Source: Eubacteriales bacterium
GTDB lineage: Bacteria; Bacillota; Clostridia; Oscillospirales; QAKW01
DNA: 64,000 nt
Assembly (NCBI GenBank): GCA_045636365.1
Contig: JAZTXG010000031.1
Location: 6,121-70,120 of the forward strand
Direction of reading: 5' to 3'
Shown piece after piece: positions 6,062 to 26,180 of the stretch. Positions within the stretch are counted from its first letter, which is position 1. Each line of letters begins with the position of its first letter. The notes under the pieces were generated by a model. The model made no database searches. It was not told the DNA's origin and was given only the letters and a program-made list of their open reading frames with translations. Position numbers and translations under genes: made by a program.

Positions 6062-6817
6062 GTTCATTTGAAACATTCTCATTGCATTTTCGTCGGTGAT
6101 TCGCTCGATCTCTTCGGGGGTGGTATTGCGCAGTTCCGCCATCACCTTGATGATCTCGGGCAGATAAAGGGCGCTGTTGCGCTTGCCGCGATAAGGGGTG
6201 GGGGCAAGGTAAGGGCTATCGGTCTCCAGCATCAGCCGATCGGCAGGGACCGCGGCGATTACCTCTTTGGCAACGCGTGCATTTTTAAAAGTGCAGACTC
6301 CGCCCATCGAGATGGACCAACCCATTTTTACCAGCTCCCGCATCGATTCCACCGAACCGCTATAGCAATGAAAAATACCTTTCACATTGGGATGCTCCCG
6401 CAAAATCGCAAGGGTATCCTGCATGGCATCGCGGCAATGAACGATGGCGGGCAGATGATATTGCTCCGCCAGCTCCAACTGTTTATGAAACCATTTTTGC
6501 TGAATCTCTTTGGGAACATCATCGTAGTAGTAATCCAGCCCGATTTCGCCGATGGCAACCACCTTGGGTTGCTTGAGCATTTCTTCCAAAGCGGCGGTAC
6601 CCTGCTGCTCCAATTCCATGGTATCATGGGGATAGATGCCGATGGAGCAATAGACAAAATCATAGGTCTGCGCCAATTTCAGCGCATCGCGGCACCCTTG
6701 ATGGCTGCAACCGGAATTGATGAGGCGGGCAATGCCCGCCCCTTTCATTTTTTTAAAAAGTTCGGTGCGATCCGCATCGTATTGCGGATCGTCCATATGG
6801 GCGTGGACGTCGATCAT
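6059..6817 (-). CDS. tatD: TatD-family metal-dependent hydrolase/DNase
   Basis: 252 aa. Has the MIDVHAH start, EIGLDYYY, HCRDA and ETDSPYL motifs. Lies immediately downstream of metG, as in many Firmicutes. Confidence 0.9.
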   Translation of the reverse strand: MIDVHAHMDDPQYDADRTELFKKMKGAGIARLINSGCSHQGCRDALKLAQTYDFVYCSIGIYPHDTMELEQQGTAALEEMLKQPKVVAIGEIGLDYYYDDVPKEIQQKWFHKQLELAEQYHLPAIVHCRDAMQDTLAILREHPNVKGIFHCYSGSVESMRELVKMGWSISMGGVCTFKNARVAKEVIAAVPADRLMLETDSPYLAPTPYRGKRNSALYLPEIIKVMAELRNTTPEEIERITDENAMRMFQMN

Positions 6818-14498: not shown

Positions 14499-14575
14499 AA
14501 CAGTATGTATCATCGGTGCAGTATGCACATTTTGAAAACTTCACCGATCGACGTAACGACAGGAGGTTGTTTAGA

Positions 14576-17500
14576 ATGAAACACATGAAGAAATTATCTG
14601 CCGTTCTGTTGGTTGTGGTTATGCTGATCTCCATGCTTTCTTGTATGGTGTTTGGCGCAACTGCGGCCCAGCTGGAGTTGGGCGGGCCGGTATCCATCGA
14701 GAAGATGCCCTTGCGGGGGGATTCGATCGGAACCGGTATTGTTGTCGGCGGTCAGTTGCTGACAGAACCGGATGTTCTGGTTGTCAACAGCGATTGGCAA
14801 AAAGCCAAGGGGCTCCAGCCCATCAAATTGGGCGGTGTCGTGTATAACGTCACCATCGGTGTCAACGGCTTTGCCGAAGTTGCTGACGCGCTGGATGCAG
14901 CTAATGGCCATGAGACCATCTATGTTGCTGCCGGTCTTTATGAAGCCGGCTTCATGCAGTCTGTCGGTAATATCAAGCTGTATGGTCCTAAGGCGGGTGT
15001 GAACCCCAATGATGCCAAGGATCTTTCCAAGCCCAATGCCAAGCGTCCCGCTGCAGCAGGTCTTGAAGCCTCCAAAGAGGGCGAGGCGGTTCTGACCGGC
15101 GGAATGAGCTATAGCGCAAGCGGCTCCGATCTGGTAATGGATGGCTTCTATCTGGATGGCGGGTTCTCCTTCTCCACCGATGGCTCGATGGGTACCGGTG
15201 CCACCAACTATCGTTTCGGTACGGTTGTGAAGAACTGCGTGGTCAATACTACTGCAAGCAACCTTTTCAACCATTCGGTGGGTAACAGCCCGAATATGGA
15301 GATCAGCAATCTGCGTGTTTTGGCAGGTAAGAATCTGGTCAATATCAGCGGTATGATGGACATTCGTGTCACCAACAACTATCTGAACCTGACCGGTAAT
15401 ACCATTGATACCAAGCTGGTCTGCGCCGGTAGTATGGGTTCTCATGCATTGATTGAGAACAACTATTATGAATACTGCGGCGGCAATGTTTTCAGATACG
15501 CCCACGAACTGCAGACTGCGCTCTATACGGCGATCGTTCGCAACAACTACATTGCAGATATGGGTCCTGCTGCAATGGTTCATAACACCTATTATGGTGC
15601 GCATACCCTGCCCGGTACCAATCTGCAGATCACCCATAATACGGTAATGAAGATCGACGAAGAGCAGACCTTGTTTGAGTTCCCCTTTGTCGCTTCGTAT
15701 GACTATTATTATGAATTTCCCTTTATGGTCAATATCAACGAGAACTATTTTGATCTTCCTGAAGACACGATGTTTGTCGATTCGGAAATGAATGCTTCGT
15801 TGAATTTGGTCAACAACTATTATACATCTTCTGTCCCTGTCGATCGTATTACTAAACATGAGGACACAAAGCTGGACCTCTATCCCTACTATGCAGACGA
15901 AGCAATGACCAAATTGGTCGGCAGCTTCACAACTGAAATGACCAACGCGGAGATTGATCATGTGAATAAGAGAATCACCATCAATCTTGCAAAAATGGGC
16001 AATCCGACCTCTATCGATCTGAGCGCTGTGCTCAAGACCGATGTAGAGTGCAGTTGGAAACTTTATGAAGATCGGACTTTGACCAAAGAAGTTTCGAATA
16101 AGATCGCTTATCCTTCCGGTGTAGCGACTCAGTATTTCGCCGAGATCACCACTTTGGATGGTAAGGGCGGTGTGGTCTATGAGATCCGCCTGCTCTCCGG
16201 CGACAGTACCGAAGCCGCGCTGGTGGATGTTGTCTTTAGCAGCCATCGCGTTGACGCTCCCGTAATCTTAGGTAAAACCTTTACTTATAATCTCCCTTCG
16301 GATCTGGCTTTCGTCGATTACGAACTGAAGGTCTCTGCCGGCGCAGAATACGAAGTTTATGCCGAGTATGATCAATCCTTCAATAACCATAAGCCTTTTG
16401 AAGATATCGGAAATTATATTCCCCATGGCGGATATCAGTTCGATGTGGTTATCACATCCGGCGATGGAATAAAGAAAGACGTTTATACCGTTGTGTTTAA
16501 CCGCGGGCGTAATGAAGCGAGCGATCCCAGCCTGATCGGCGGCAAAGCTCCTTCCAACGGGCAATACAGAATGTTGCGTGACGGCTCCTTGCTCTTTACC
16601 AGCGAGCAGCTGCTGACCAAAGCAACCTTTGAGTTGACCGCCACCCCCGGCGCTTCCTATACCATCTTCTCCGATGCGGCGAAGAAGACCGCTGTATCTT
16701 CCTCCAAGCAGCTCAAAGAGATTGCTTTGAAGGAAGGCGAGACCACCTTCTATGTCGAGGTCCGCGATGGTGTGTATACCAATACCATTCCCTTTATCGT
16801 TCGTAACGAAGGCAAATCTTCGGCGGCTGATATTGTCGGTGTGGCCGGTCTTTCTCCCATCATTAACAATAATGTTATCACTGTCCAGAGCGGTGGCGAT
16901 AGCATCAACGTCGTCTTTAATACCAGCGATCCCTATGCGGTGATCAAGGTATATGCCGATCCTGCAAGAAAGATCGCCTTGGAGTATACCTCCAACCCGA
17001 TCGAAGAAGAGCCCAACCGTTTTATCGATGAGCGCTCCTTCAATCTGGATATTACCCATGCGGTATCGAAATACTATGTTGATTGTATTGCTGAAAACGG
17101 TAAGGTCAATCAATACGACCTGATCATCACCAAGAATGTAAAGGTCAATGCGTATAATGATGTTCCTGAAGATGCATGGTATAAGAAGTATGTGGAATCT
17201 GCAACCGGCGACGGTGTCCTGCAAGGCTCTCCCAGCGGAAGCGAATTTGCATTCCGCGGAGATGATAATACCACCCGCCAAGAAATGGCGATTGTCGCCA
17301 GCCGCCTGCTTGGTATTAACACCACCTCCTTCGCCGATGTGAAACTTCCCTTTGCTGATACTGCCAAGATCGCCGATTGGGCGGTTGGCAATGTCAAGGT
17401 GGCCTACTATTTTGGTATTATGAAGGGTTCGGCCGATGCAACCGGCTTGAACTTCCACCCCGCAAGCGACATCAAGCGCGAAGAAGTCATTGCGATGTTC

Positions 17501-17695
17501 GTCCGTCTGTTCAACCTGAGCGATAGCGCCGATCTGACCGAATTTAAAGATTATGCATCGGTATCCTCCTGGGCTGTTGAGTCTATGGAAGCCGCAGTTG
17601 CTTCCGGCTTGATCGAGGGCGACGACAACGAAATGTTGAATCCCCAAAAGCCCATCACCCGCGCAGAACTTGCCGCGATGATTTCCAGAGTATAA
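14576..17695 (+). CDS. large secreted surface protein: parallel beta-helix repeats, Ig/cadherin-like beta-sandwich modules, three C-terminal SLH domains
   Basis: ATG at 14576 follows the RBS aggagg and gives a signal peptide MKHMKKLSAVLLVVVMLISML. NNY-type beta-helix repeats recur (VTNNYLNL, IENNYYEY, VRNNYIAD, ITHNTV, INENYF, LVNNYY). The last ~180 aa hold three SLH repeats (..FRGDDNTTRQEMA.., ..FHPASDIKREEV.., ..LNPQKPITRAELA..). Confidence 0.8.
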   Translation: MKHMKKLSAVLLVVVMLISMLSCMVFGATAAQLELGGPVSIEKMPLRGDSIGTGIVVGGQLLTEPDVLVVNSDWQKAKGLQPIKLGGVVYNVTIGVNGFAEVADALDAANGHETIYVAAGLYEAGFMQSVGNIKLYGPKAGVNPNDAKDLSKPNAKRPAAAGLEASKEGEAVLTGGMSYSASGSDLVMDGFYLDGGFSFSTDGSMGTGATNYRFGTVVKNCVVNTTASNLFNHSVGNSPNMEISNLRVLAGKNLVNISGMMDIRVTNNYLNLTGNTIDTKLVCAGSMGSHALIENNYYEYCGGNVFRYAHELQTALYTAIVRNNYIADMGPAAMVHNTYYGAHTLPGTNLQITHNTVMKIDEEQTLFEFPFVASYDYYYEFPFMVNINENYFDLPEDTMFVDSEMNASLNLVNNYYTSSVPVDRITKHEDTKLDLYPYYADEAMTKLVGSFTTEMTNAEIDHVNKRITINLAKMGNPTSIDLSAVLKTDVECSWKLYEDRTLTKEVSNKIAYPSGVATQYFAEITTLDGKGGVVYEIRLLSGDSTEAALVDVVFSSHRVDAPVILGKTFTYNLPSDLAFVDYELKVSAGAEYEVYAEYDQSFNNHKPFEDIGNYIPHGGYQFDVVITSGDGIKKDVYTVVFNRGRNEASDPSLIGGKAPSNGQYRMLRDGSLLFTSEQLLTKATFELTATPGASYTIFSDAAKKTAVSSSKQLKEIALKEGETTFYVEVRDGVYTNTIPFIVRNEGKSSAADIVGVAGLSPIINNNVITVQSGGDSINVVFNTSDPYAVIKVYADPARKIALEYTSNPIEEEPNRFIDERSFNLDITHAVSKYYVDCIAENGKVNQYDLIITKNVKVNAYNDVPEDAWYKKYVESATGDGVLQGSPSGSEFAFRGDDNTTRQEMAIVASRLLGINTTSFADVKLPFADTAKIADWAVGNVKVAYYFGIMKGSADATGLNFHPASDIKREEVIAMFVRLFNLSDSADLTEFKDYASVSSWAVESMEAAVASGLIEGDDNEMLNPQKPITRAELAAMISRV

Positions 17696-17701
17696 ATTTT
17701 T

Positions 17702-17740
17702 AAAAAACCTTGCCGAACTTGGTTCGGCAAGGTTTTTTTA
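17702..17740 (+). terminator. Rho-independent terminator after the beta-helix/SLH gene
   Basis: Stem aaccttgccgaac / ttcggcaaggtt followed by T7. Confidence 0.85.
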
Positions 17741-17837
17741 TCCCTCAAAAGAGGTGGCATTTTGAACAAAATTTTAAGTCCAATATTATTCAAACTAAAC
17801 AAACCGCTCCTTAATCAAAAAACATTTTAAAAAAGCC

Positions 17838-17866
17838 TTGCATCTTACTTTATTATTATATATAAT
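17838..17866 (+). promoter_or_regulatory. putative strong sigma-A promoter of the N-terminal-SLH protein gene
   Basis: TTGCAT at 17838-17843, 17-nt spacer, consensus TATAAT at 17861-17866. A ~45-nt leader ends in the RBS ggaggt. Confidence 0.6.
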
Positions 17867-17910
17867 ATAATAAAATAGAAGGGGAATTCCCTTTTGACGG
17901 AGGTAACGGA

Positions 17911-19887
17911 ATGAGAACCATAAAAAGTTTGCTGGCAGCGATAATGACTATTGTTATGATCGTATGCATGAGCGTGTCTGCGTTCGCAGCGTATGAAGAA
18001 ATTATATATGACGACGTTCATGATATGTACGGGACAACGCTGTCTGAAGTAAACCTTCATTATATCCGCTTTGTCGATAAACTTGGAATCATTACCGCGC
18101 ATACCAACGGCAGCTTTGATCCCTCCGGCAAGCTCACACGCGGCGAGGCATTGAAGATCGCGTATCGGATGCTGCACTACGGTTATGACGAACTTGCCGA
18201 TTATGAAAGCGCCATCACCTCCTTTGATGAGATGGAAGGCGGTGATATTTCCGATACCGCTATGATTCTTCCTTATGTTGCTTGGGGCGAAGACTTTCAG
18301 CTGATCAGCGGTGAGTATGTTCCCGAGAAGAAGTTTGAGGCGGATCGCAATATCTCCGGCGAAGAGTTCATCACCCTCATTACCAAGACCTGCGGCATTG
18401 CCACCGGCGAAGATAACGCTGCGGAATACGAAGAGTTCCAGACCGTGATTTTGGAAGGCTCCGAAGTGGATGCATCTGTGGAGAGCATCAACCGTGAGCA
18501 AGCCGCGATCATTGTGGCGCGCGCGATGCTGTATGATGCCAATGTCGGCACCATCGATAGCGAAATGTTTGCCAGCTTCCGTGATTTCGATGGCAACCTG
18601 TTGGATTGCCTTGCAACAAAGATTTATGGCTGTAATACCGTCGCCCTCACCATCCGCGGTACCGAAAACCGCCCGATGAACTACGAGGGAATTATCAAAG
18701 AGGTTCTTCTTTCCAACGGTGTGCAGACCGATGTCGGCGCAGACCTGAGCGAGTTTGTCGGCTATAATATCGATATTGTTTATTTGGATAAAGATCATTC
18801 CGGCACCTTTACCGAGGATGAAGAGCTGATTACTTATCAGATTGCTTCTCCCATTGTCAATAAAGTTCCTCTTACTGAAATCTCTGTCAATAGTTTCTCC
18901 AGCCTCTCCGGTACCTCTACGAGTAGTACATATGCAATTTTCTCCAATACCATGCTGTATCTCAACGATGATGTATGGCCGTTGGGGGATGTATATAACC
19001 TGACCAAGGCGGTCAGCGTTGTAAACTTCAAAACACCCACCTTGATCACCGGCAGACCCAATCTGGAACTTACCTTTATTCAGCACGGCTCTGCGGAAAA
19101 CGCCGATGTGGTTCTGGCAACCGAATGGATCCCCGGCAAGCTGATGACGGTGACCGACAATTATATGTCTGTTTATAGTTATTATGACGGCAGCGTTCAT
19201 GTGTATGACGACAACGACATTGTCCTCAAAGGAATTGCCAATCCCAAAAGCGGCGACTATGTCAACTTCTATGTTGCTTCCGGCAAGCTTTATCTTTCCG
19301 CTGGTACCGTAGAAGAAATGGAAAAGATCGCTGCGACTAACGTAGGCGGTCTGGACGGTATTAAGGACAGCGCCGCCACGAACGGCAAAGGATACTATGC
19401 ACACTCCTTTGTAAATAAACCCACCATCAATATCAAAGAAGTGGTCGGCCCTGTTGTAGCCGTTTTGGATTCCACCCGCGTCTCCTATCTGGCCTATGAA
19501 GAGAAGAAGGCGACCAAGGATGTAGCGGTCGAGATTCTCGATATCACTGCCAATGCCAATACCGCTAAGGTGAAGGTTCGCGCTTTGGATACCGGTAAGG
19601 AATCCGAATTGACTGTCGATCTCAATCGCATCTCTTCCAAAGAGGGTGTCATTGATATCGGTGATATGTATACTTATTACACAACCGCCGGCGGTAAGGT
19701 CGTTATGGACGAGATCGCTCCGGTCAAGACCGTTGCGATCGAGACCGAAGATTATTTCATTCTCGATGGCGGCAGAAAGGTTCTCAAGACCGAAGGCTAT
19801 GTTTCCGATACCGAAAGCTTGAAGAGCGGCGAAGTGGTCCTTTATATGGATGCATACGACGGTGTCTGGGCTTCCTACGAAGCATAA
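17911..19887 (+). CDS. secreted protein with three N-terminal SLH domains (S-layer protein candidate)
   Basis: Signal peptide ends in SVSAFA|AYEE. SLH-like repeats follow (..FDPSGKLTRGEALKIAYRML.., ..FEADRNISGEEFITLI.., ..SINREQAAIIVARAM..). The remaining ~450 aa are beta-rich with no motif I recognise. Confidence 0.75.
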   Translation: MRTIKSLLAAIMTIVMIVCMSVSAFAAYEEIIYDDVHDMYGTTLSEVNLHYIRFVDKLGIITAHTNGSFDPSGKLTRGEALKIAYRMLHYGYDELADYESAITSFDEMEGGDISDTAMILPYVAWGEDFQLISGEYVPEKKFEADRNISGEEFITLITKTCGIATGEDNAAEYEEFQTVILEGSEVDASVESINREQAAIIVARAMLYDANVGTIDSEMFASFRDFDGNLLDCLATKIYGCNTVALTIRGTENRPMNYEGIIKEVLLSNGVQTDVGADLSEFVGYNIDIVYLDKDHSGTFTEDEELITYQIASPIVNKVPLTEISVNSFSSLSGTSTSSTYAIFSNTMLYLNDDVWPLGDVYNLTKAVSVVNFKTPTLITGRPNLELTFIQHGSAENADVVLATEWIPGKLMTVTDNYMSVYSYYDGSVHVYDDNDIVLKGIANPKSGDYVNFYVASGKLYLSAGTVEEMEKIAATNVGGLDGIKDSAATNGKGYYAHSFVNKPTINIKEVVGPVVAVLDSTRVSYLAYEEKKATKDVAVEILDITANANTAKVKVRALDTGKESELTVDLNRISSKEGVIDIGDMYTYYTTAGGKVVMDEIAPVKTVAIETEDYFILDGGRKVLKTEGYVSDTESLKSGEVVLYMDAYDGVWASYEA

Positions 19888-19903
19888 GTAAAAACCGAAT
19901 AGT

Positions 19904-19937
19904 AAAGCAGCAGAGTTTGCGCTCTGCTGCTTTTTTA
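19904..19937 (+). terminator. Rho-independent terminator after the N-terminal-SLH gene
   Basis: Stem gcagcagag / ctctgctgc followed by T6. Confidence 0.85.
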
Positions 19938-20010
19938 TTGCCTTTTATATATAAAATAGGAAGAAAATTGCCCAAAACAGCATTCCTATGCGAAATTTGT
20001 CGTAATTCTA

Positions 20011-20026
20011 GCACAATATATAGTGT
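20011..20026. promoter_or_regulatory. NrdR box 1 (near-consensus)
   Basis: gCACAATATATAGTGT matches the 16-bp palindromic NrdR box ACACwATATaTwGTGT at 15 of 16 positions. Confidence 0.7.
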
Positions 20027-20042
20027 TTTGCAAAAAATAACA

Positions 20043-20058
20043 GAAATATATATTGTGT
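20043..20058. promoter_or_regulatory. NrdR box 2 (degenerate left arm)
   Basis: gaaATATATATTGTGT. Its centre is 32 bp from box 1. Confidence 0.5.
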
Positions 20059-20064
20059 TTGCTA

Positions 20065-20094
20065 TTGACAGAACACCATATCTCGTGTTAAAAT
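20065..20094 (+). promoter_or_regulatory. putative sigma-A promoter of the nrd operon
   Basis: TTGACA at 20065-20070, 18-nt spacer, TAAAAT at 20089-20094. Confidence 0.55.
20073..20088. promoter_or_regulatory. NrdR box 3, inside the promoter spacer
   Basis: ACACCATATCTCGTGT has both ACAC/GTGT arms intact. Its centre is 30 bp from box 2. It lies between the TTGACA and the -10. Confidence 0.6.
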
Positions 20095-20133
20095 AATATC
20101 CGGACCGCAAAATATAGGGAAAACTATGCGAAA

Positions 20134-20847
20134 ATGAAGGGAAATGCCAAGAAAATGACGATTGAAGGCTTGCAAAAACTAACATTGCTGGATTATCCCG
20201 GCCGTACAGCCTGCACCATTTTTTTGGCAGGCTGTAATTTTCGTTGCCCTTTTTGCCATAACTTTGAATTGGTGGCAAAGCCGACCGCTCCGCTGATGAC
20301 CGATGAGGAACTGTTGGAATTTTTGCAAAAGCGTAAAGGACTGCTGGATGGCGTTGCCATCACCGGCGGCGAACCTCTGCTGCGAAAAGAACTGCCCGAA
20401 TTGTTGCGAAAGATCAAAGGTTTGGGCTATGCGGTCAAATTGGATACTAACGGTAGCTTCCCTGCCCGCTTGAAAGCGCTGGTGGAGGAAGGTTTGGTCG
20501 ATTATGTGGCGATGGATGTTAAAAACGCACCCGAGCGCTATGGCGAGACGGTCGGCTTTTTGAAGCTGGAACTTTCCGCCATCCGCGAGAGCATCGATTT
20601 TCTTTTGAGCGATGCGGTGGATTATGAATTCCGGACCACAGTCATTGAGCAGTATCATTCCGAAAAGGAGATTCGCGCCATTGCGGAGTGGATCCAAGGC
20701 GCCAAGCGCTGGTTTTTGCAGCAGTTTAAAGCCTCGGAGCGGGTCCCCAATAGAGAGCTCACCCCGCCGAGTTATCAAAAAATGCAGGAATATCTGCAGA
20801 TTGCCAAGCAGATCATTCCGGAGACCGAATTGAGAGGGGTGGGATAA
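20134..20847 (+). CDS. nrdG: anaerobic ribonucleoside-triphosphate reductase activating protein (radical SAM)
   Basis: Has the LLDYPGRTACTIFLAGCNFRCPFCHN radical-SAM CxxxCxxC cluster and GVAITGGEPL. The start could also be the ATG at 20155; both have weak RBSs. Confidence 0.9.
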   Translation: MKGNAKKMTIEGLQKLTLLDYPGRTACTIFLAGCNFRCPFCHNFELVAKPTAPLMTDEELLEFLQKRKGLLDGVAITGGEPLLRKELPELLRKIKGLGYAVKLDTNGSFPARLKALVEEGLVDYVAMDVKNAPERYGETVGFLKLELSAIRESIDFLLSDAVDYEFRTTVIEQYHSEKEIRAIAEWIQGAKRWFLQQFKASERVPNRELTPPSYQKMQEYLQIAKQIIPETELRGVG

Positions 20848-20848
20848 A

Positions 20849-21478
20849 ATGAACGTATTTTTAATGCAAGGGGATTCCATCACCGACGCAGGGCGCGACA
20901 GAAACGTCGATCCGGCACCGTATCACGCGCTGGGAAAAGGCTACGCAGCTTTGACTGCTTCCGCGCTGGAACTGAAATATCCCGGCGAATATACCTATAT
21001 CAATCGAGGAAAAAGCGGGAACCGCATTGTGGATCTGTTTGCTCGCGATAAGTTGGATCTGATCAATCTCAAGCCCGATATTTTGAGTATTTTAATTGGT
21101 GTCAACGATGTTTTGCATGAGTATAGCCGTCAAAACGGTGTGGAGCCTGAAAAATTCGAAATGATGTATAACCTGTTGCTGGATGAGGTGCAGGAGGCTC
21201 TGCCCGATGTTAAAGTGATTTTGATGGGTGCATTTGTAATGCCTAATTTGCAAGACTATGATTACGCTTCCTTCCGCGCCGATGTGGCCGAGCGTGCTTC
21301 CATCGCCAAGAAGATCGCCGATGCACGTGGCTTCAAATATGTGGATCTGCAAAGCTTGTTTGATCAAGCGGAGGATTGCGGTGTTCAACATCTGACTAAA
21401 GATGGCATCCACCCCGATTATGCTGGCTGCGAATTGATTAAAGATGCGTTGGTTGCGGCATTTGAGGAGGTGCGGTAA
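20849..21478 (+). CDS. SGNH/GDSL-family hydrolase (paralog 1)
   Basis: Has block I LMQGDSITD, block II GKSGNRIVD, block III LIGVNDV and block V DGIHPD. Lies 1 nt after the nrdG stop. Confidence 0.8.
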   Translation: MNVFLMQGDSITDAGRDRNVDPAPYHALGKGYAALTASALELKYPGEYTYINRGKSGNRIVDLFARDKLDLINLKPDILSILIGVNDVLHEYSRQNGVEPEKFEMMYNLLLDEVQEALPDVKVILMGAFVMPNLQDYDYASFRADVAERASIAKKIADARGFKYVDLQSLFDQAEDCGVQHLTKDGIHPDYAGCELIKDALVAAFEEVR

Positions 21479-21479
21479 G

Positions 21480-22091
21480 GTGAAAGTTGTTTTAATGCAA
21501 GGCGATTCCATCACCGACGGCCTGCGGAATAAAGCGGATTCCGGAGATCTGGGTCAATGGTACGCCAAAAGAGTGGCAGGCGCTTTGGAACTTGCCCACC
21601 CCGGTGAATATACCTTTATCAACCGCGGTATTCACGGCAACCGCATTGTGGATATCTATGCCCGTATCAAGCAGGATATCATCAATCTGAAACCTGATAT
21701 TATGACCTTGATGATCGGTACCAACGATGTTTGGGCGGAATACACCCGCCAAAACGGAGTCCCGCCCGAAAAATACGAGCGTTTTTATGAGATGATTTTA
21801 GATGAGGTGGAGGCGGCTCTGCCCAATATTAAGATCATTCTGATGGGTTCGTATTTTCAAGAGGGAGTGCAGGAATATAACGATTCCTTCCTGTCCGAAA
21901 TCAAGGGCCGCGCAGAGATTGTTCGCAAGATAGCCAAGCGGCGCGGTTATCCGTATATTGCCACCCAACCGCTCTTTGATGAAGCGGAAGCTCGCGGGGT
22001 AAAGCACCTGACATACGACGGTGTCCATCCCGATGTCGCCGGTTGCGAACTGCTCAAAAACGCACTGGTCAAAGAAATAGAAAAATTATAA
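21480..22091 (+). CDS. SGNH/GDSL-family hydrolase (paralog 2)
   Basis: GTG at 21480 follows the RBS gaggagg and aligns with the paralog 1 N-terminus (VKVVLMQGDSITD vs MNVFLMQGDSITD). Has blocks GIHGNRIVD, MIGTNDV and DGVHPD. Lies 1 nt after the paralog 1 stop. Confidence 0.8.
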   Translation: MKVVLMQGDSITDGLRNKADSGDLGQWYAKRVAGALELAHPGEYTFINRGIHGNRIVDIYARIKQDIINLKPDIMTLMIGTNDVWAEYTRQNGVPPEKYERFYEMILDEVEAALPNIKIILMGSYFQEGVQEYNDSFLSEIKGRAEIVRKIAKRRGYPYIATQPLFDEAEARGVKHLTYDGVHPDVAGCELLKNALVKEIEKL

Positions 22092-22114
22092 TAAATATAT
22101 AGGAGAGAAAAACG

Positions 22115-24487
22115 ATGTATCACGTAATTAAGCGCGATGGCGCCGAGGCTGATTTTAATATTGCCAAGATCAGTGTAGCCATCCAAAAGGCATTTGATGC
22201 CGTTGGCAAGGAATCCCACCCCAGCATTATCGACCTTCTTGCGTTGAAGGTTACCGCTCATTTTGAAAGCAAGGTTAAGGACGGTAAGATCGCCGTTGAA
22301 GAGATTCAGGATAGTGTCGAGGCCATCCTCAGCGAATCGGGCTATGCCGATGTCGCTAAAGCATACATTCTGTATCGTAAGCAGCGGGAAAAGGTCCGTA
22401 ACCTCAAGACCACCTTCTTGGATTATAAGTCCTTGGTGGATAGCTATGTCAACGTTACCGACTGGCGTGTAAAGGAAAACTCCACCGTGACTTATTCGGT
22501 GGGTGGCTTGATCCTTTCCAACAGCGGCGCCATCACCGCAAACTATTGGCTGAGCGAGATCTACGATGCCGAGATCGCCGATGCTCATCGCAATGCCGAT
22601 ATCCATATCCATGACCTTTCGATGCTGACCGGTTATTGCGCCGGTTGGTCCTTGAAGCAGCTGATCAAGGAAGGCTTGGGCGGTGTTCCCGGAAAGATCA
22701 CCTCTGCCCCCGCTAAGCACTTGGTTTCTTTGTGCAACCAGATGGTCAACTTCCTTGGCATTATGCAGAATGAATGGGCAGGCGCACAAGCCTTCTCTTC
22801 CTTTGATACTTATCTGGCACCTTTTGTTAAGGTGGACAATCTTTCTTATGGCGAAGTCAAGAACTGCATCCAGTCCTTCATCTTCGGTGTCAATACCCCC
22901 AGCCGTTGGGGTACTCAGGCTCCCTTCTCTAATATTACTTTGGACTGGACCGTTCCTGCCGACTTAAAGGATCTGCCTGCCATCGTCGGCGGCAAGGAGA
23001 TGGATTTCACCTACGGCGATTGTAAGGAAGAGATGGATATGATCAACCGCGCCTTTATCGAGACGATGATCGAAGGCGATGCCAATGGTCGCGGCTTCCA
23101 ATATCCCATCCCCACCTATTCCATCACCAAGGATTTCGATTGGTCCGAGACCGAGAACAATAAACTGCTCTTTGAGATGACCGCTAAATACGGCACTCCC
23201 TATTTCTCCAACTATATCAATAGTGATATGGAGCCCAGCGATGTCCGCAGTATGTGCTGCCGCCTGCGCTTGGATCTGCGCGAGCTGCGTAAAAAGTCCG
23301 GTGGCTTCTTCGGCTCCGGCGAAAGCACCGGTTCGGTCGGCGTGGTTACCATCAACCTGCCCCGCATCGCATTCCAATCCGCCAGCGAAAAGGAATTCTA
23401 TGCACGCCTCGATAAGCTGCTGGATATCTCCGCTCGCTCCCTGCACGTAAAGCGTACCGTCATCACCAAGTTCCTGGATGAAGGCCTCTATCCCTATACC
23501 AAGCGGTATCTGGGTACCTTCAATAACCATTTCTCCACCATCGGCTTGGTCGGTATGAACGAAACCGCATTGAACGCTTGCTGGCTGCGTAAGAACCTGA
23601 CCACCGAAGAAGGTCAGAAGTTTGCCAAGGATGTTCTGAACCATATGCGTAACCGCCTTTCCGATTATCAGGAAGAATACGGTGATCTTTATAACTTGGA
23701 GGCTACTCCCGCCGAATCCACCTCTTATCGTTTGGCAAAGCACGATACCAGCCGCTTCCCCGGCATCATCACCGCTAATATGGACGGTACTCCCTACTAT
23801 ACCAACTCCTCTCATCTGCCTGTTGGCTATACCGAGGATATCTTCACCGCTCTGGATCTGCAGGATGAACTGCATACTCTCTATACCTCCGGTACTGTTT
23901 TCCATGCCTATATGGGTGAAAAACTGCCTACATGGAAGTCCTGCGCCGATCTGGTCCGTAAGATTGCCGAAAACTATCGTTTGCCCTATTATTCCATGAG
24001 CCCCACCTATTCGGTATGTAAGAACCACGGCTACATCACCGGCGACCAGTATACCTGCCCGCAGTGTGGCGAGAATACCGAAGTTTATAGCCGTATCACC
24101 GGCTACTATCGTCCGGTCCAGAACTGGAACGACGGTAAGGCGCAGGAATTCAAGGATCGTAAGCTCTATGATCAGCAGATCGCCATCAATAAGGTTCCCG
24201 TAAACCATGGTTGCGGCTGCGGCTGCGGCGATGCCGAGCCCGAATTGGTGGGCGGTAACCGCGCCATGCTCTTCACCACCAAAACCTGCCCCAACTGCAA
24301 GATGGTTGTTGCCATGCTGGATCAGGCGGGCTTTGAATATGAAAAGTTGGATGCCGAAGCGCCCGAAAACCGCGGCTTGGTGGATGCCTACCAGATCAAC
24401 CGCGCTCCCACCCTCATCGTCGAAACCGATGCAGGGGTAGAGAAGCTGACCAACGCTTCCGAGATCCGCGCATTTTTGAAAAAATAA
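22115..24487 (+). CDS. nrdD: anaerobic ribonucleoside-triphosphate reductase (class III) with N-terminal ATP-cone and C-terminal thioredoxin/glutaredoxin-like fusion
   Basis: 790 aa. Has an ATP-cone (MYHVIKRDG..), the loop SMCCRLRLD, a Zn ribbon C..CPQC and the glycyl-radical motif SRITGYY (Gly663). A 104-aa extension follows, with HGCGCGCGD and a redoxin fold TKTCPNCK...RAPTLIV. Confidence 0.95.
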   Translation: MYHVIKRDGAEADFNIAKISVAIQKAFDAVGKESHPSIIDLLALKVTAHFESKVKDGKIAVEEIQDSVEAILSESGYADVAKAYILYRKQREKVRNLKTTFLDYKSLVDSYVNVTDWRVKENSTVTYSVGGLILSNSGAITANYWLSEIYDAEIADAHRNADIHIHDLSMLTGYCAGWSLKQLIKEGLGGVPGKITSAPAKHLVSLCNQMVNFLGIMQNEWAGAQAFSSFDTYLAPFVKVDNLSYGEVKNCIQSFIFGVNTPSRWGTQAPFSNITLDWTVPADLKDLPAIVGGKEMDFTYGDCKEEMDMINRAFIETMIEGDANGRGFQYPIPTYSITKDFDWSETENNKLLFEMTAKYGTPYFSNYINSDMEPSDVRSMCCRLRLDLRELRKKSGGFFGSGESTGSVGVVTINLPRIAFQSASEKEFYARLDKLLDISARSLHVKRTVITKFLDEGLYPYTKRYLGTFNNHFSTIGLVGMNETALNACWLRKNLTTEEGQKFAKDVLNHMRNRLSDYQEEYGDLYNLEATPAESTSYRLAKHDTSRFPGIITANMDGTPYYTNSSHLPVGYTEDIFTALDLQDELHTLYTSGTVFHAYMGEKLPTWKSCADLVRKIAENYRLPYYSMSPTYSVCKNHGYITGDQYTCPQCGENTEVYSRITGYYRPVQNWNDGKAQEFKDRKLYDQQIAINKVPVNHGCGCGCGDAEPELVGGNRAMLFTTKTCPNCKMVVAMLDQAGFEYEKLDAEAPENRGLVDAYQINRAPTLIVETDAGVEKLTNASEIRAFLKK
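24212..24229 (+). repeat. (tgcggc)x3 hexanucleotide repeat encoding the Cys-Gly linker of NrdD
   Basis: ggt tgcggc tgcggc tgcggc gat translates to G-CG-CG-CG-D. Confidence 0.9.
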
Positions 24488-24494
24488 TTGAAAC

Positions 24495-24526
24495 AGAATA
24501 ACCGATCCGCTTGGATCGGTTATTCT
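24495..24526 (+). promoter_or_regulatory. perfect 14-bp stem-loop between nrdD and trxB (no proper U-tract)
   Basis: agaataaccgatcc-gctt-ggatcggttattct, followed by tctcaaaggag (the trxB RBS). Confidence 0.6.
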
Positions 24527-24544
24527 TCTCAAAGGAGAACAACT

Positions 24545-25444
24545 ATGTTTGATACCATTATTATCGGCGGCGGGACCGCCGGTATGACGGCCGCCATCTA
24601 CCTGCTTCGCGCAGGAAAAAAGGTGCTTTTGCTGGAATCCACCGCTCTGGGTGGGCAGATCACCGCCTCCGCCCGCATCGAAAATTTCCCCGGCTTATTC
24701 GGGGTAAGCGGGGTGGAATATGCCGACCGCTTGGCGGAGCAGATGTTTGAGTTTGGCGGCAGCATCGATCCGGTCGAAGTGGCAAAGGTGGAAAAATCCG
24801 CCGAGGGCTTTTTGGTCCGCACCACCGATGAGGAAGAATATCAAGCCAAAAGCATTATCATCGCCAGCGGCGCCGCCCATCGCCATTTGGGTGTGGAGCG
24901 GGAAGAAGAGCTGGCGGGCATCTCCTATTGCGCGGTCTGCGATGGCGCCTTCTATAAAGGCAAGGAAGTGGCTGTGGTCGGCGGCGGCAATGCTGCGGTG
25001 CAGTCGGCGCTTTCCTTGGCGGACCTTTGCAGTAAGGTAACCTTGATCCATCGCCGCGACGGCTTCCGTTGCGAGCCGGTGCTGCTGGAGCGGCTGCGCG
25101 CCAAAGAGAATGTGGAATTCCGCTTGGGCGCGGTGGTCAGCAAATTGATCGGCGAAACCAAGCTGGAAGCGGTGGAGTTGACCTATGCCGACCGCACCGA
25201 GGAGATGACCTTGGACGGCTTGTTCATTGCCATCGGTCAGCAGCCCAAAAACCAGCCCTTTGCCGAGCTTTGCGATCTGGACGAAGCGGGCTATATCGAT
25301 GCGGAAGAAGATTGCCTGACCAAAACCCCCGGTGTCTTTGCGGCGGGCGATTGCCGCAAAAAGCAGGTGCGCCAGCTGGCAACCGCCGCCGGCGACGGCG
25401 CGGTGGCAGGCTTGGCAGCTTCTGCATATATAGATAACCTCTAA
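24545..25444 (+). CDS. trxB: thioredoxin-disulfide reductase
   Basis: ATG at 24545 follows the RBS aaaggag. Has the FAD site IIGGGTAGMTAA, the redox centre YCAVCDG, the NADPH site VVGGGNAA and the C-terminal AAGDC. Confidence 0.92.
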   Translation: MFDTIIIGGGTAGMTAAIYLLRAGKKVLLLESTALGGQITASARIENFPGLFGVSGVEYADRLAEQMFEFGGSIDPVEVAKVEKSAEGFLVRTTDEEEYQAKSIIIASGAAHRHLGVEREEELAGISYCAVCDGAFYKGKEVAVVGGGNAAVQSALSLADLCSKVTLIHRRDGFRCEPVLLERLRAKENVEFRLGAVVSKLIGETKLEAVELTYADRTEEMTLDGLFIAIGQQPKNQPFAELCDLDEAGYIDAEEDCLTKTPGVFAAGDCRKKQVRQLATAAGDGAVAGLAASAYIDNL

Positions 25445-25449
25445 TGTTT

Positions 25450-25483
25450 AAAAAGGAAGAAGCGATGCTTCTTCCTTTTTTTA
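25450..25483 (+). terminator. Rho-independent terminator after trxB
   Basis: Stem aaggaagaagc / gcttcttcctt followed by T7. Confidence 0.85.
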
Positions 25484-25541
25484 TTGCGTATGATCTGAAT
25501 ATATGTTAAAATAAATAATAATACTCTATTGGAGAATGAAG

Positions 25542-26180
25542 ATGACCGAAAAGAAGTATTTTGTTCCCGCCGGCGATTGCCGAACGGAATTTATAGAGCG
25601 AAAAAGCCGATTTATAACCAGCATAGCCCGCGTGGAGTCGGTGGAAGAAGCGGACGCCTTTTTGAATAAGATCCGCGCCGAATTCCCCGATGCCACCCAT
25701 AACTGCGCGGCATACCGCATCAAGACCCCGCTGGTGGAGCGGTTTTTCGATGATGGCGAGCCGGGCGGAACGGCGGGGATGCCGATGCTGGATGTACTCA
25801 AAAAGCAGGAACTGTTTGATGTGGCGGTGGTGGTCACCCGCTACTTCGGCGGTATTCTTTTGGGCGCGGGCGGCTTGGTGCGCGCCTATTCCAAGGGCGC
25901 AGCCGATGGGGTCAAGGAAGCAGGGCTGGCGCTGATGGAGCAAGGGGTGCGGCTGAAGCTTCGCTGCAGCTATTCCCTGTATGAGCGGGTGCAGCGGATG
26001 CCCCAGCTGCAAAATGCCGAAATTCTATCTACCGAATTTGGTGCGGAGATTGAAATGGAACTGATGCTGCGGGCGTCGGAAGAGCAAGGGCTGGCGCAGG
26101 CCTTGGCGGATCTTTCGGCAGGCACCGCCACTTTAACCGCGCTGGAGCGGATGTTTTATCCTTTCAAAACAAATTGTTAA
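25542..26180 (+). CDS. yigZ: YigZ/IMPACT-family protein (UPF0029)
   Basis: Has KSRFITSIARVES...PDATHNCAAYRI and GEPGGTAG motifs. The ATG at 25542 has better RBS spacing than the track start at 25536. Confidence 0.8.
   Translation: MTEKKYFVPAGDCRTEFIERKSRFITSIARVESVEEADAFLNKIRAEFPDATHNCAAYRIKTPLVERFFDDGEPGGTAGMPMLDVLKKQELFDVAVVVTRYFGGILLGAGGLVRAYSKGAADGVKEAGLALMEQGVRLKLRCSYSLYERVQRMPQLQNAEILSTEFGAEIEMELMLRASEEQGLAQALADLSAGTATLTALERMFYPFKTNC

Follow-up and report, generated by a model that had tools for sequence, protein, structure and literature searches.

In the genome of a Eubacteriales bacterium (contig JAZTXG010000031.1), an operon for anaerobic (class III) ribonucleotide reductase (RNR) carries two tandem SGNH esterase genes between nrdG, the gene for the reductase activase, and nrdD, the gene for its catalytic subunit. 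We analyzed a stretch of 64,000 nucleotides containing this operon (the window, in whose numbering coordinates are given unless a related locus is named). Five genes lie on the plus strand in the order nrdG, SGNH-1, SGNH-2, nrdD (with a C-terminal glutaredoxin-like domain) and trxB. Both the list of open reading frames (ORFs) and the raw junction sequence give gaps of 1, 1, 23 and 57 nt between them, the order and spacing stated in the original prediction, an earlier reading of this DNA made without database searches. The junctions read TAA-a-ATG between nrdG and SGNH-1 and TAA-g-GTG between SGNH-1 and SGNH-2, and the 23-nt spacer between SGNH-2 and nrdD contains AGGAGA.

The radical SAM activase gene nrdG (20134..20847, +) was identified by a profile search with TIGR02495 (216.7 bits, cutoff 131). 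Translation of nrdG probably begins at the ATG at 20155, for a product of 230 aa, because nearly all homologues are 229–230 aa long and use that start, 21 nt into the longest ORF. SGNH-1 (20849..21478, +; 209 aa), an Axe2-like SGNH esterase gene, starts 1 nt past the nrdG stop codon with its Shine-Dalgarno sequence within the 3′ end of nrdG, and its tandem paralog SGNH-2 (21480..22091, +; 203 aa) has a GTG start; the two match PF13472 (Lipase_GDSL_2) with E-values of 5e-26 and 2e-26, respectively. Profile searches with the product of nrdD (22115..24487, +) returned NF006126 (1141 bits, cutoff 548) and PF13597 (E 1e-191), together with an N-terminal ATP-cone and a C-terminal Glutaredoxin match. 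The last gene (24545..25444, +) encodes a TrxB-like low-molecular-weight thioredoxin reductase with CAVC and HRRDxxR motifs, which scores slightly below the TIGR01292 cutoff (334.9 bits, cutoff 343.45), and a trxB gene lies downstream of nrdD in nearly all related operons.

A sigma-70-type promoter, TTGACA-18 nt-TAAAAT with a TG extension (20065..20094, +; 11/12 matches), precedes nrdG and is the best-scoring site within 19700–25700. Searching the 64 kb with the NrdR-box consensus of the literature, ACACWATATATWGTGT, at up to three mismatches gave 4 hits versus 0.25 expected. These comprise three distinct NrdR-box-like palindromes (20011–20026, 20043–20058 and 20073–20088, +), two of the hits overlapping at the first site (20011), and none lies elsewhere in the 64 kb. 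The box centers are spaced 32 and 30 bp apart, in keeping with the usual arrangement of tandem 16-bp NrdR boxes about three helical turns apart. The set overlaps the promoter, the third box lying between the −35 and −10 elements, and most of the related loci examined have a similar box at that place. Of 10 related loci examined, 9 have similar boxes and a TTGACA/TAgAAT promoter in front of nrdG, and the single NrdR-type promoter that had been proposed is thus borne out at the level of its sequence elements. A strong terminator (~19904–19933) ends the preceding gene. A motif search of the window for MxCPxC...DSR gave no NrdR-like ORF.

Folding energies agree with the earlier statements that the only convincing terminator follows trxB (25450..25483, +; 14-bp stem, −18 kcal/mol, z −5.6, then a U-run) and that the hairpin between nrdD and trxB lacks a U-tract. 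This perfect 14-bp hairpin (24495..24526, +; −25 kcal/mol, z −7.3) is kept through compensatory changes in two related loci, L001 and L002 (AGCAACC/GGTTGCT in L001 for AATAACC/GGTTATT), and is absent in a third, L003; it is probably an mRNA-stabilizing or leaky attenuating element. It is followed (within 24495–24544) by a small second stem in which part of the trxB Shine-Dalgarno sequence is paired; hairpin and second stem may tune trxB expression or protect the 3′ end of nrdD. Between nrdG and nrdD we found no credible plus-strand terminator, and promoter matches there are only of background quality. The relatives share tight nrdG/SGNH junctions, with gaps of 0–2 nt or overlaps and the Shine-Dalgarno sequence within the preceding gene. 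Given the single NrdR-type promoter, the lack of an internal terminator and the conserved tight junctions, the parsimonious reading, which the original prediction had also reached, is that the esterase genes would be co-transcribed with nrdG and translationally coupled to it.

The two esterases are 56% identical, and each contains every catalytic block of the family (GDSITD; NRG(K/I)(S/H)GNRIVD; IG(V/T)NDV; DG(I/V)HPD), in line with the earlier estimate by eye of about half identity with all SGNH blocks retained. Block I occupies residues 8–13 in both paralogs and is invariant across a 17-sequence alignment, and in alignment A1 the oxyanion-hole residues of blocks II and III (G54, G57, N58 and N86) and the triad residues of block V (D185 and H188) are invariant; in SGNH-2 a His replaces the Ser of ‘SGN’ with the Gly and Asn kept. 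The catalytic Ser is residue 10 in both proteins, leaving no room for a signal peptide, as had been noted, and the proteins should therefore be cytoplasmic. An AlphaFold2 (AF2) model of SGNH-1 (predicted local distance difference test score 87.4, predicted template modeling score 0.88) has the three-layer alpha/beta/alpha fold of SGNH hydrolases: Foldseek with this model gave 144 hits at E ≤ 1e-3, the top hits all being SGNH hydrolases, with template modeling (TM) scores of 0.90 to 4q9a and 0.85 to Axe2 (0.84–0.86 over Axe2, 3RJT and 5JD3). Searching the PDB with phmmer, the best relatives, including 4q9a, span E-values of 1e-26 to 1e-18, among them 5jd3 (LAE5; 8e-26), Axe2 (1e-21) and 3rjt (2e-18). 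Like the members of this family (G. stearothermophilus Axe2, 3W7V/4JHL; LAE5, 5JD3; 3RJT; Parabacteroides merdae 4Q9A), the two proteins fall in a size class of ~205–220 aa without a signal peptide, and they share the same four SGNH blocks, the Ser-Asp-His triad and, by prediction, the fold (TM 0.84–0.90) at 29–33% identity. By sequence, and for SGNH-1 also by modeled structure, both paralogs belong to the Axe2/LAE5/4Q9A esterase family as cytoplasmic members with predicted esterase activity. Axe2 and its homologues are characterized intracellular acetyl esterases that form ring-shaped octamers; Axe2 activity requires the doughnut-shaped homo-octamer, and the interface residues are unconserved even among proven octamers (bioRxiv 10.1101/466904).

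Both copies are maintained. Ratios of nonsynonymous to synonymous substitution rates (dN/dS) against the L001–L003 orthologues are 0.12–0.17 for SGNH-1, 0.08–0.10 for SGNH-2 and 0.08–0.10 for nrdG. The similarity of the esterase values to those of nrdG marks both copies as functional genes under purifying selection. We considered complementary degeneration of the two, with SGNH-1 losing a Trp typical of the family and SGNH-2 the adjacent His, and rejected it: only the window shows the Trp-to-Leu change, and WH is kept in the SGNH-1 orthologues of L001 and L002.

We then looked at where such genes occur, seeding one scan with the esterase and others with NrdG. The esterase scan covered one genome per GTDB species, and the best 80 of 588 matches were taken together with as much as 6 kb of flanking sequence per side, contig ends permitting. 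In just two of these 80 loci, L004 and L011, is the esterase gene preceded by nrdG and followed by nrdD-trxB; in the other 78, those flanks are free of nrd genes. No recurrent partner of the esterase family was found among 112 flanking proteins from 69 of those loci, which represent 121 Pfam families and show only local synteny; with no conserved partner and no dominant carbohydrate theme, the neighbors of the esterase give no hint of its substrate. An unrelated Acutalibacteraceae locus (L052, 5354–6624) has two tandem copies of the same esterase family without nrd context, and tandem duplication thus recurs among Axe2-like esterases.

On contigs whose NrdG is 68–91% identical to that of the window, the order nrdG-SGNH-nrdD-trxB is present in ten loci (L001–L004, L011, L084 and L171–L174), while L086, L088 and L089/L090 have nrdG-nrdD-trxB without an esterase. 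The slot between nrdG and nrdD is therefore filled in 11 of the 14 sampled loci of what proves to be one clade (the window and these ten), with two SGNH copies in the window, L001 and L002 and one copy in the other SGNH-bearing loci. A metagenome scan returned 80 loci with NrdG 49–59% identical; ~45 of them have a redoxin-fused nrdD directly downstream, usually followed by trxB, and in none of these ~45 is there an SGNH gene in between. The conserved module is therefore nrdG-nrdD(redoxin)-trxB, to which this one clade has added the esterase. The nrdG-nrdD spacer of the distant operons (L092–L170) is fairly constant at ~155 nt; in the window's clade it is replaced by the esterase or shortened to 40–87 nt.

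The order of events was reconstructed on a neighbor-joining tree of concatenated NrdG, NrdD and TrxB (1363 columns, 200 bootstraps) that included nine outgroups. On it, a single clade of uncultured gut Clostridia unites the 14 close loci (100%), and all nine outgroups are without an SGNH gene in the slot. Within the clade the SGNH-bearing L174 is basal (97.5%), the SGNH-less L088 and L089 are nested with the SGNH-bearing L011 and L172 (100%), and the SGNH-less L086 is nested with the SGNH-bearing L171, L004 and L084 (98%). This topology is most parsimoniously read as one gain of a single ancestral copy followed by two losses. One of the losses has left a deletion scar. The intact slot in L011 and L172 reads ‘...GTAGATTAA ATGAAA.. 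SGNH ..TAAAAATATAGATAGAGAGGATTAGGAAAAGATG’ and that of L089 reads ‘GTAGATTAA GTGAAAAAATAAAGAAGATAGAGAGGATTAGGAAAGATG’; the scar in L088 (~6690–6735) and L089 (~6690–6730), to be compared with L011 5990–6660 and L172 5685–6350, keeps the stop codon of nrdG, followed after one base by the start codon of the esterase, and also the nrdD leader (GATAGAGAGGATTAGG...ATG). What remains of the esterase is a mini-ORF, GTG AAA AAA TAA (3 codons) in L089 and ATG TGT TGA in L088. L172 has the same flanking genes as L088 and L089 with its esterase intact. The 87-nt nrdG-nrdD spacer of L086 contains no recognizable SGNH remnant, and that loss is accordingly read from the tree alone. The tandem pair is a later duplication that, judged from the SGNH tree, arose within the group of the window, L001, L002 and L003: the SGNH-2 clade, with orthologues in L001 and L002 only, has a bootstrap of 100/100, and the single copy of L003 groups weakly with SGNH-1 (57%). 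L003 may have lost its SGNH-2.

The beginnings of the two esterase genes are nearly identical, as the original prediction had pointed out for a 28-nt segment. The identity is real (30 nt with one mismatch, at 20860–20890 and 21491–21521) and is not specific to the two paralogs: the first ~12 codons (TTA. CAA GGN GAT TCC ATC ACC) are almost invariant at synonymous sites in 10 of 10 nrd-linked copies from seven genomes. On these grounds we rejected gene conversion as its source: codons common to all ten copies indicate conservation across orthologues and not recent exchange between paralogs. Synonymous divergence elsewhere in the nrd-linked esterases is saturated, and unlinked family members vary their codons at these 5′ positions. 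The invariance may reflect selection on a coupled translation-initiation region.

The remainder of the operon has the makings of a self-contained reductase. In NrdD a CxxC ribbon and the glycyl-radical motif RITGYYR are conserved, which identifies a class III NrdD/NrdG system, and GYC(175)AGW, SMC(381)C(382)RL, RITGYYR and the C-terminal TCPNC domain are invariant in 37 related sequences. The Tyr-Cys pair of GYCAGW and the extra, third active-site cysteine of the adjacent-cysteine xCCR motif in SMCCRL are shared with the NrdD of Thermotoga maritima and Neisseria bacilliformis (NrdD2/NrdDh), a type that these features mark and that uses a thioredoxin-like reductant and not formate, according to PMC4493059. 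Judged by these two Cys motifs, the fused CPNC redoxin and the adjacent TrxB, the window NrdD looks like the thiol-dependent type; NrdD2 as delimited by Wei et al., in the form quoted in PMC4493059, is defined by an active-site glutamate as well. The T. maritima protein is the second-best PDB sequence match to the window NrdD (E 1e-41), and the downstream trxB is reminiscent of N. bacilliformis, whose NrdD works with thioredoxin and thioredoxin reductase. Unlike the N. bacilliformis and T. maritima systems, the window has its redoxin fused to the NrdD C-terminus via a Cys-rich linker and has esterase genes between nrdG and nrdD. With the NrdD redoxin and TrxB, the operon is predicted to encode a complete NADPH-to-RNR electron path.

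The linker itself (HGCGCGCGD, NrdD residues ~698–706, 24200–24240) lies between the core and the fused CPNC domain. Its Cys-rich form (CGCGC/CGCCG) is found only in the 14-locus clade, where it is degenerate in L089, and the more distant redoxin-fused NrdDs have a Cys-free linker. Class I and II RNRs carry a C-terminal Cys pair, and by analogy the linker could be an extra thiol relay; it could also be a metal site.

Two very large ORFs (1059 and 658 aa) lie upstream of the operon at 14516–19887 and are syntenic in L001–L003. In the equivalents from these relatives, S-layer-homology (SLH) matches are clear for the 1059-aa type and absent or faint for the 658-aa type. Rfam and tRNA scans of the window gave zero matches.

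Several lines of evidence suggest that the esterase is a long-term passenger of the operon, and we consider it likely that the space between nrdG and nrdD received a housekeeping gene for a short-chain or acetyl esterase, which has stayed there. We favor this because the slot is filled in one clade, has been emptied twice and is empty in ~45 distant operons, and because the family is otherwise unlinked to nrd genes. In such a history, an Axe2-like cytoplasmic SGNH serine esterase gene would have been inserted once in the ancestor of the clade and later duplicated in tandem in the window's sub-lineage. Transcribed from the NrdR-type promoter and with its translation coupled to that of nrdG, the esterase would be synthesized in step with the operon for dNTP synthesis. 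Like their closest characterized relatives, the enzymes would act on small soluble substrates, cleaving off acetyl or other short acyl groups, and this housekeeping role, which would be no part of the mechanism of ribonucleotide reduction, would keep them under selection. The working RNR module would consist of NrdG, the thiol-type NrdD with its fused redoxin, and TrxB; indeed, these three genes are unchanged without esterases in the sister lineages and in all more distant relatives sampled. A position inside an essential operon would shield the esterase from rearrangement, so that only a precise deletion would be tolerated.

Some observations weigh against this reading. Most of the clade (11 of 14 loci) retains an esterase in the same slot and with tight junctions despite SGNH proteins that are only 47–54% identical between sub-clades, and the gene sits between the activase and its substrate protein and not at the end of the operon. 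Losses were scored at the nrd slot, where a compensating copy elsewhere in an SGNH-less genome, be it GCA_045539335.1, GCA_017473545.1 or the source of L086, would be missed, and the substrate class is drawn solely from homologues of ~30% identity and is to be taken as provisional.

The same observations can be turned toward a function in the reductase itself. The esterases might be a lineage-specific accessory of the thiol-dependent class III RNR, acting as a thioesterase or deacylase that strips acyl adducts from the Cys-rich linker, from the redoxin thiols or from an RNR substrate or effector, or else clearing a by-product of activation. The position kept with 0–2 nt junctions across 11 of the 14 clade members, the purifying selection and the confinement of the CGCGC/CGCCG linker to the same clade are all in keeping with such a role, and SGNH folds do include thioesterases such as TesA (TM ~0.65). 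Yet the gene has been lost cleanly and independently twice with the rest of the operon intact, and L086 and L088 still have the Cys-rich linker. The family is without nrd linkage elsewhere, both in 78 of the best 80 of 588 loci and in the ~45 distant operons, and there are no fusion proteins among the 120 best hits listed per query. The closest characterized relatives are acetyl-sugar esterases, and our literature search found no paper linking SGNH/GDSL enzymes with nrdG or anaerobic RNR beyond one incidental co-mention. We therefore regard an accessory role as unlikely, and its narrower form, in which SGNH is a helper that keeps the NrdD linker or redoxin or a nucleotide substrate acyl-free and its losses are compensated elsewhere in the genome, as quite improbable. 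The original prediction had left the choice between an accessory function and a passenger insertion open; the comparative data favor the passenger and disfavor the accessory. Its suggestion of an esterase that releases formate as reductant is disfavored, since the GYC and MCCR cysteines of NrdD indicate the thiol type and the operon has its own redoxin, in the fused CPNC domain, and its own TrxB, which removes the motive for releasing formate.

Two further alternatives concern how the gene came to the slot and whether it truly belongs to the operon. The slot might have been filled several times independently, or its resident gene replaced in situ by other family members, and such repeated capture would imply active selection for linking an esterase to nrdG. 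The three nrd-linked SGNH sub-clades are indeed mutually as distant (47–54% identical) as they are from unlinked family members (42–50%), and all nrd-linked copies are monophyletic in only 20/100 bootstraps of the SGNH protein tree. The deep nodes of that tree are without resolution throughout, however, which is an absence of signal and not a conflict, and we therefore used synonymous codons and the core-gene tree to address a single origin. At identical residues, synonymous-codon identity to the window SGNH-1 is 0.55 for L011, 0.52 for L084 and 0.47 for L004, versus a mean of 0.38 (sd 0.05, max 0.48) for 78 unlinked family members. This codon sharing fits common descent, with shared codon bias of related genomes as an alternative source. 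The position-specific codons at the 5′ end are common to all ten copies, the junctions are the same at all loci, and one gain with two losses is simpler than at least three gains; repeated capture is in our view very unlikely. The membership of the esterases in the operon could, finally, be only apparent, if the SGNH genes or nrdD were expressed mainly from internal promoters without co-regulation with nrdG. Weak 9/12 promoter matches occur at 21234–21262 and 21931–21959, and the ~155-nt nrdG-nrdD spacer of the distant relatives could hold an nrdD promoter. Both matches, however, are of background quality, the 1-nt gaps leave no intergenic space for a promoter, there is no NrdR box or terminator inside the cluster, and the junctions are equally tight in all relatives, all of which makes this possibility improbable.

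The locus differs from the settings in which its parts are known. Our literature search found no description of Axe2-family genes embedded in an RNR operon as the window genes are, and there is no xylan or sugar-utilization context around the window copies or in the flanks of the family members. A parallel may be the nrdI-nrdE-nrdF-ymaB operon of Bacillus subtilis, where the RNR genes share an NrdR-controlled transcript with a hydrolase gene whose role is unclear. YmaB is a Nudix protein encoded at the 3′ end of that class Ib operon. As there, a small hydrolase without an established role in ribonucleotide reduction lies inside an NrdR-type RNR operon; unlike ymaB, the window gene encodes an SGNH esterase, belongs to a class III system, sits between the activase and the catalytic subunit and has been repeatedly lost in relatives. 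The reductant genes have a counterpart in Clostridium pasteurianum, where Cp34 and Cp9 form a pair of a thioredoxin-reductase-like flavoprotein and a glutaredoxin-like protein. In the window, too, the gene for a low-molecular-weight flavoprotein of the thioredoxin reductase type adjoins a CPxC glutaredoxin-like redoxin in a clostridial genome, but this redoxin forms a domain of NrdD, and it is the RNR itself that presumably accepts the electrons. As a whole, the architecture is a known operon in a form not previously described, all of whose parts are ordinary members of their families.

Should the esterases serve the reductase after all, this would be the first case of a hydrolase acting as an accessory factor for an anaerobic ribonucleotide reductase. 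If instead they are passengers, the locus would be a natural example of an unrelated gene captured by an essential operon, retained for a long time under purifying selection of its own, duplicated in place and able to leave only by precise excision, a pattern that cautions against predicting function from guilt by association. Apart from the esterases, the locus exemplifies a class III RNR module, nrdG-nrdD(redoxin fusion)-trxB, that is widespread in clostridia and brings its own reductant chain.

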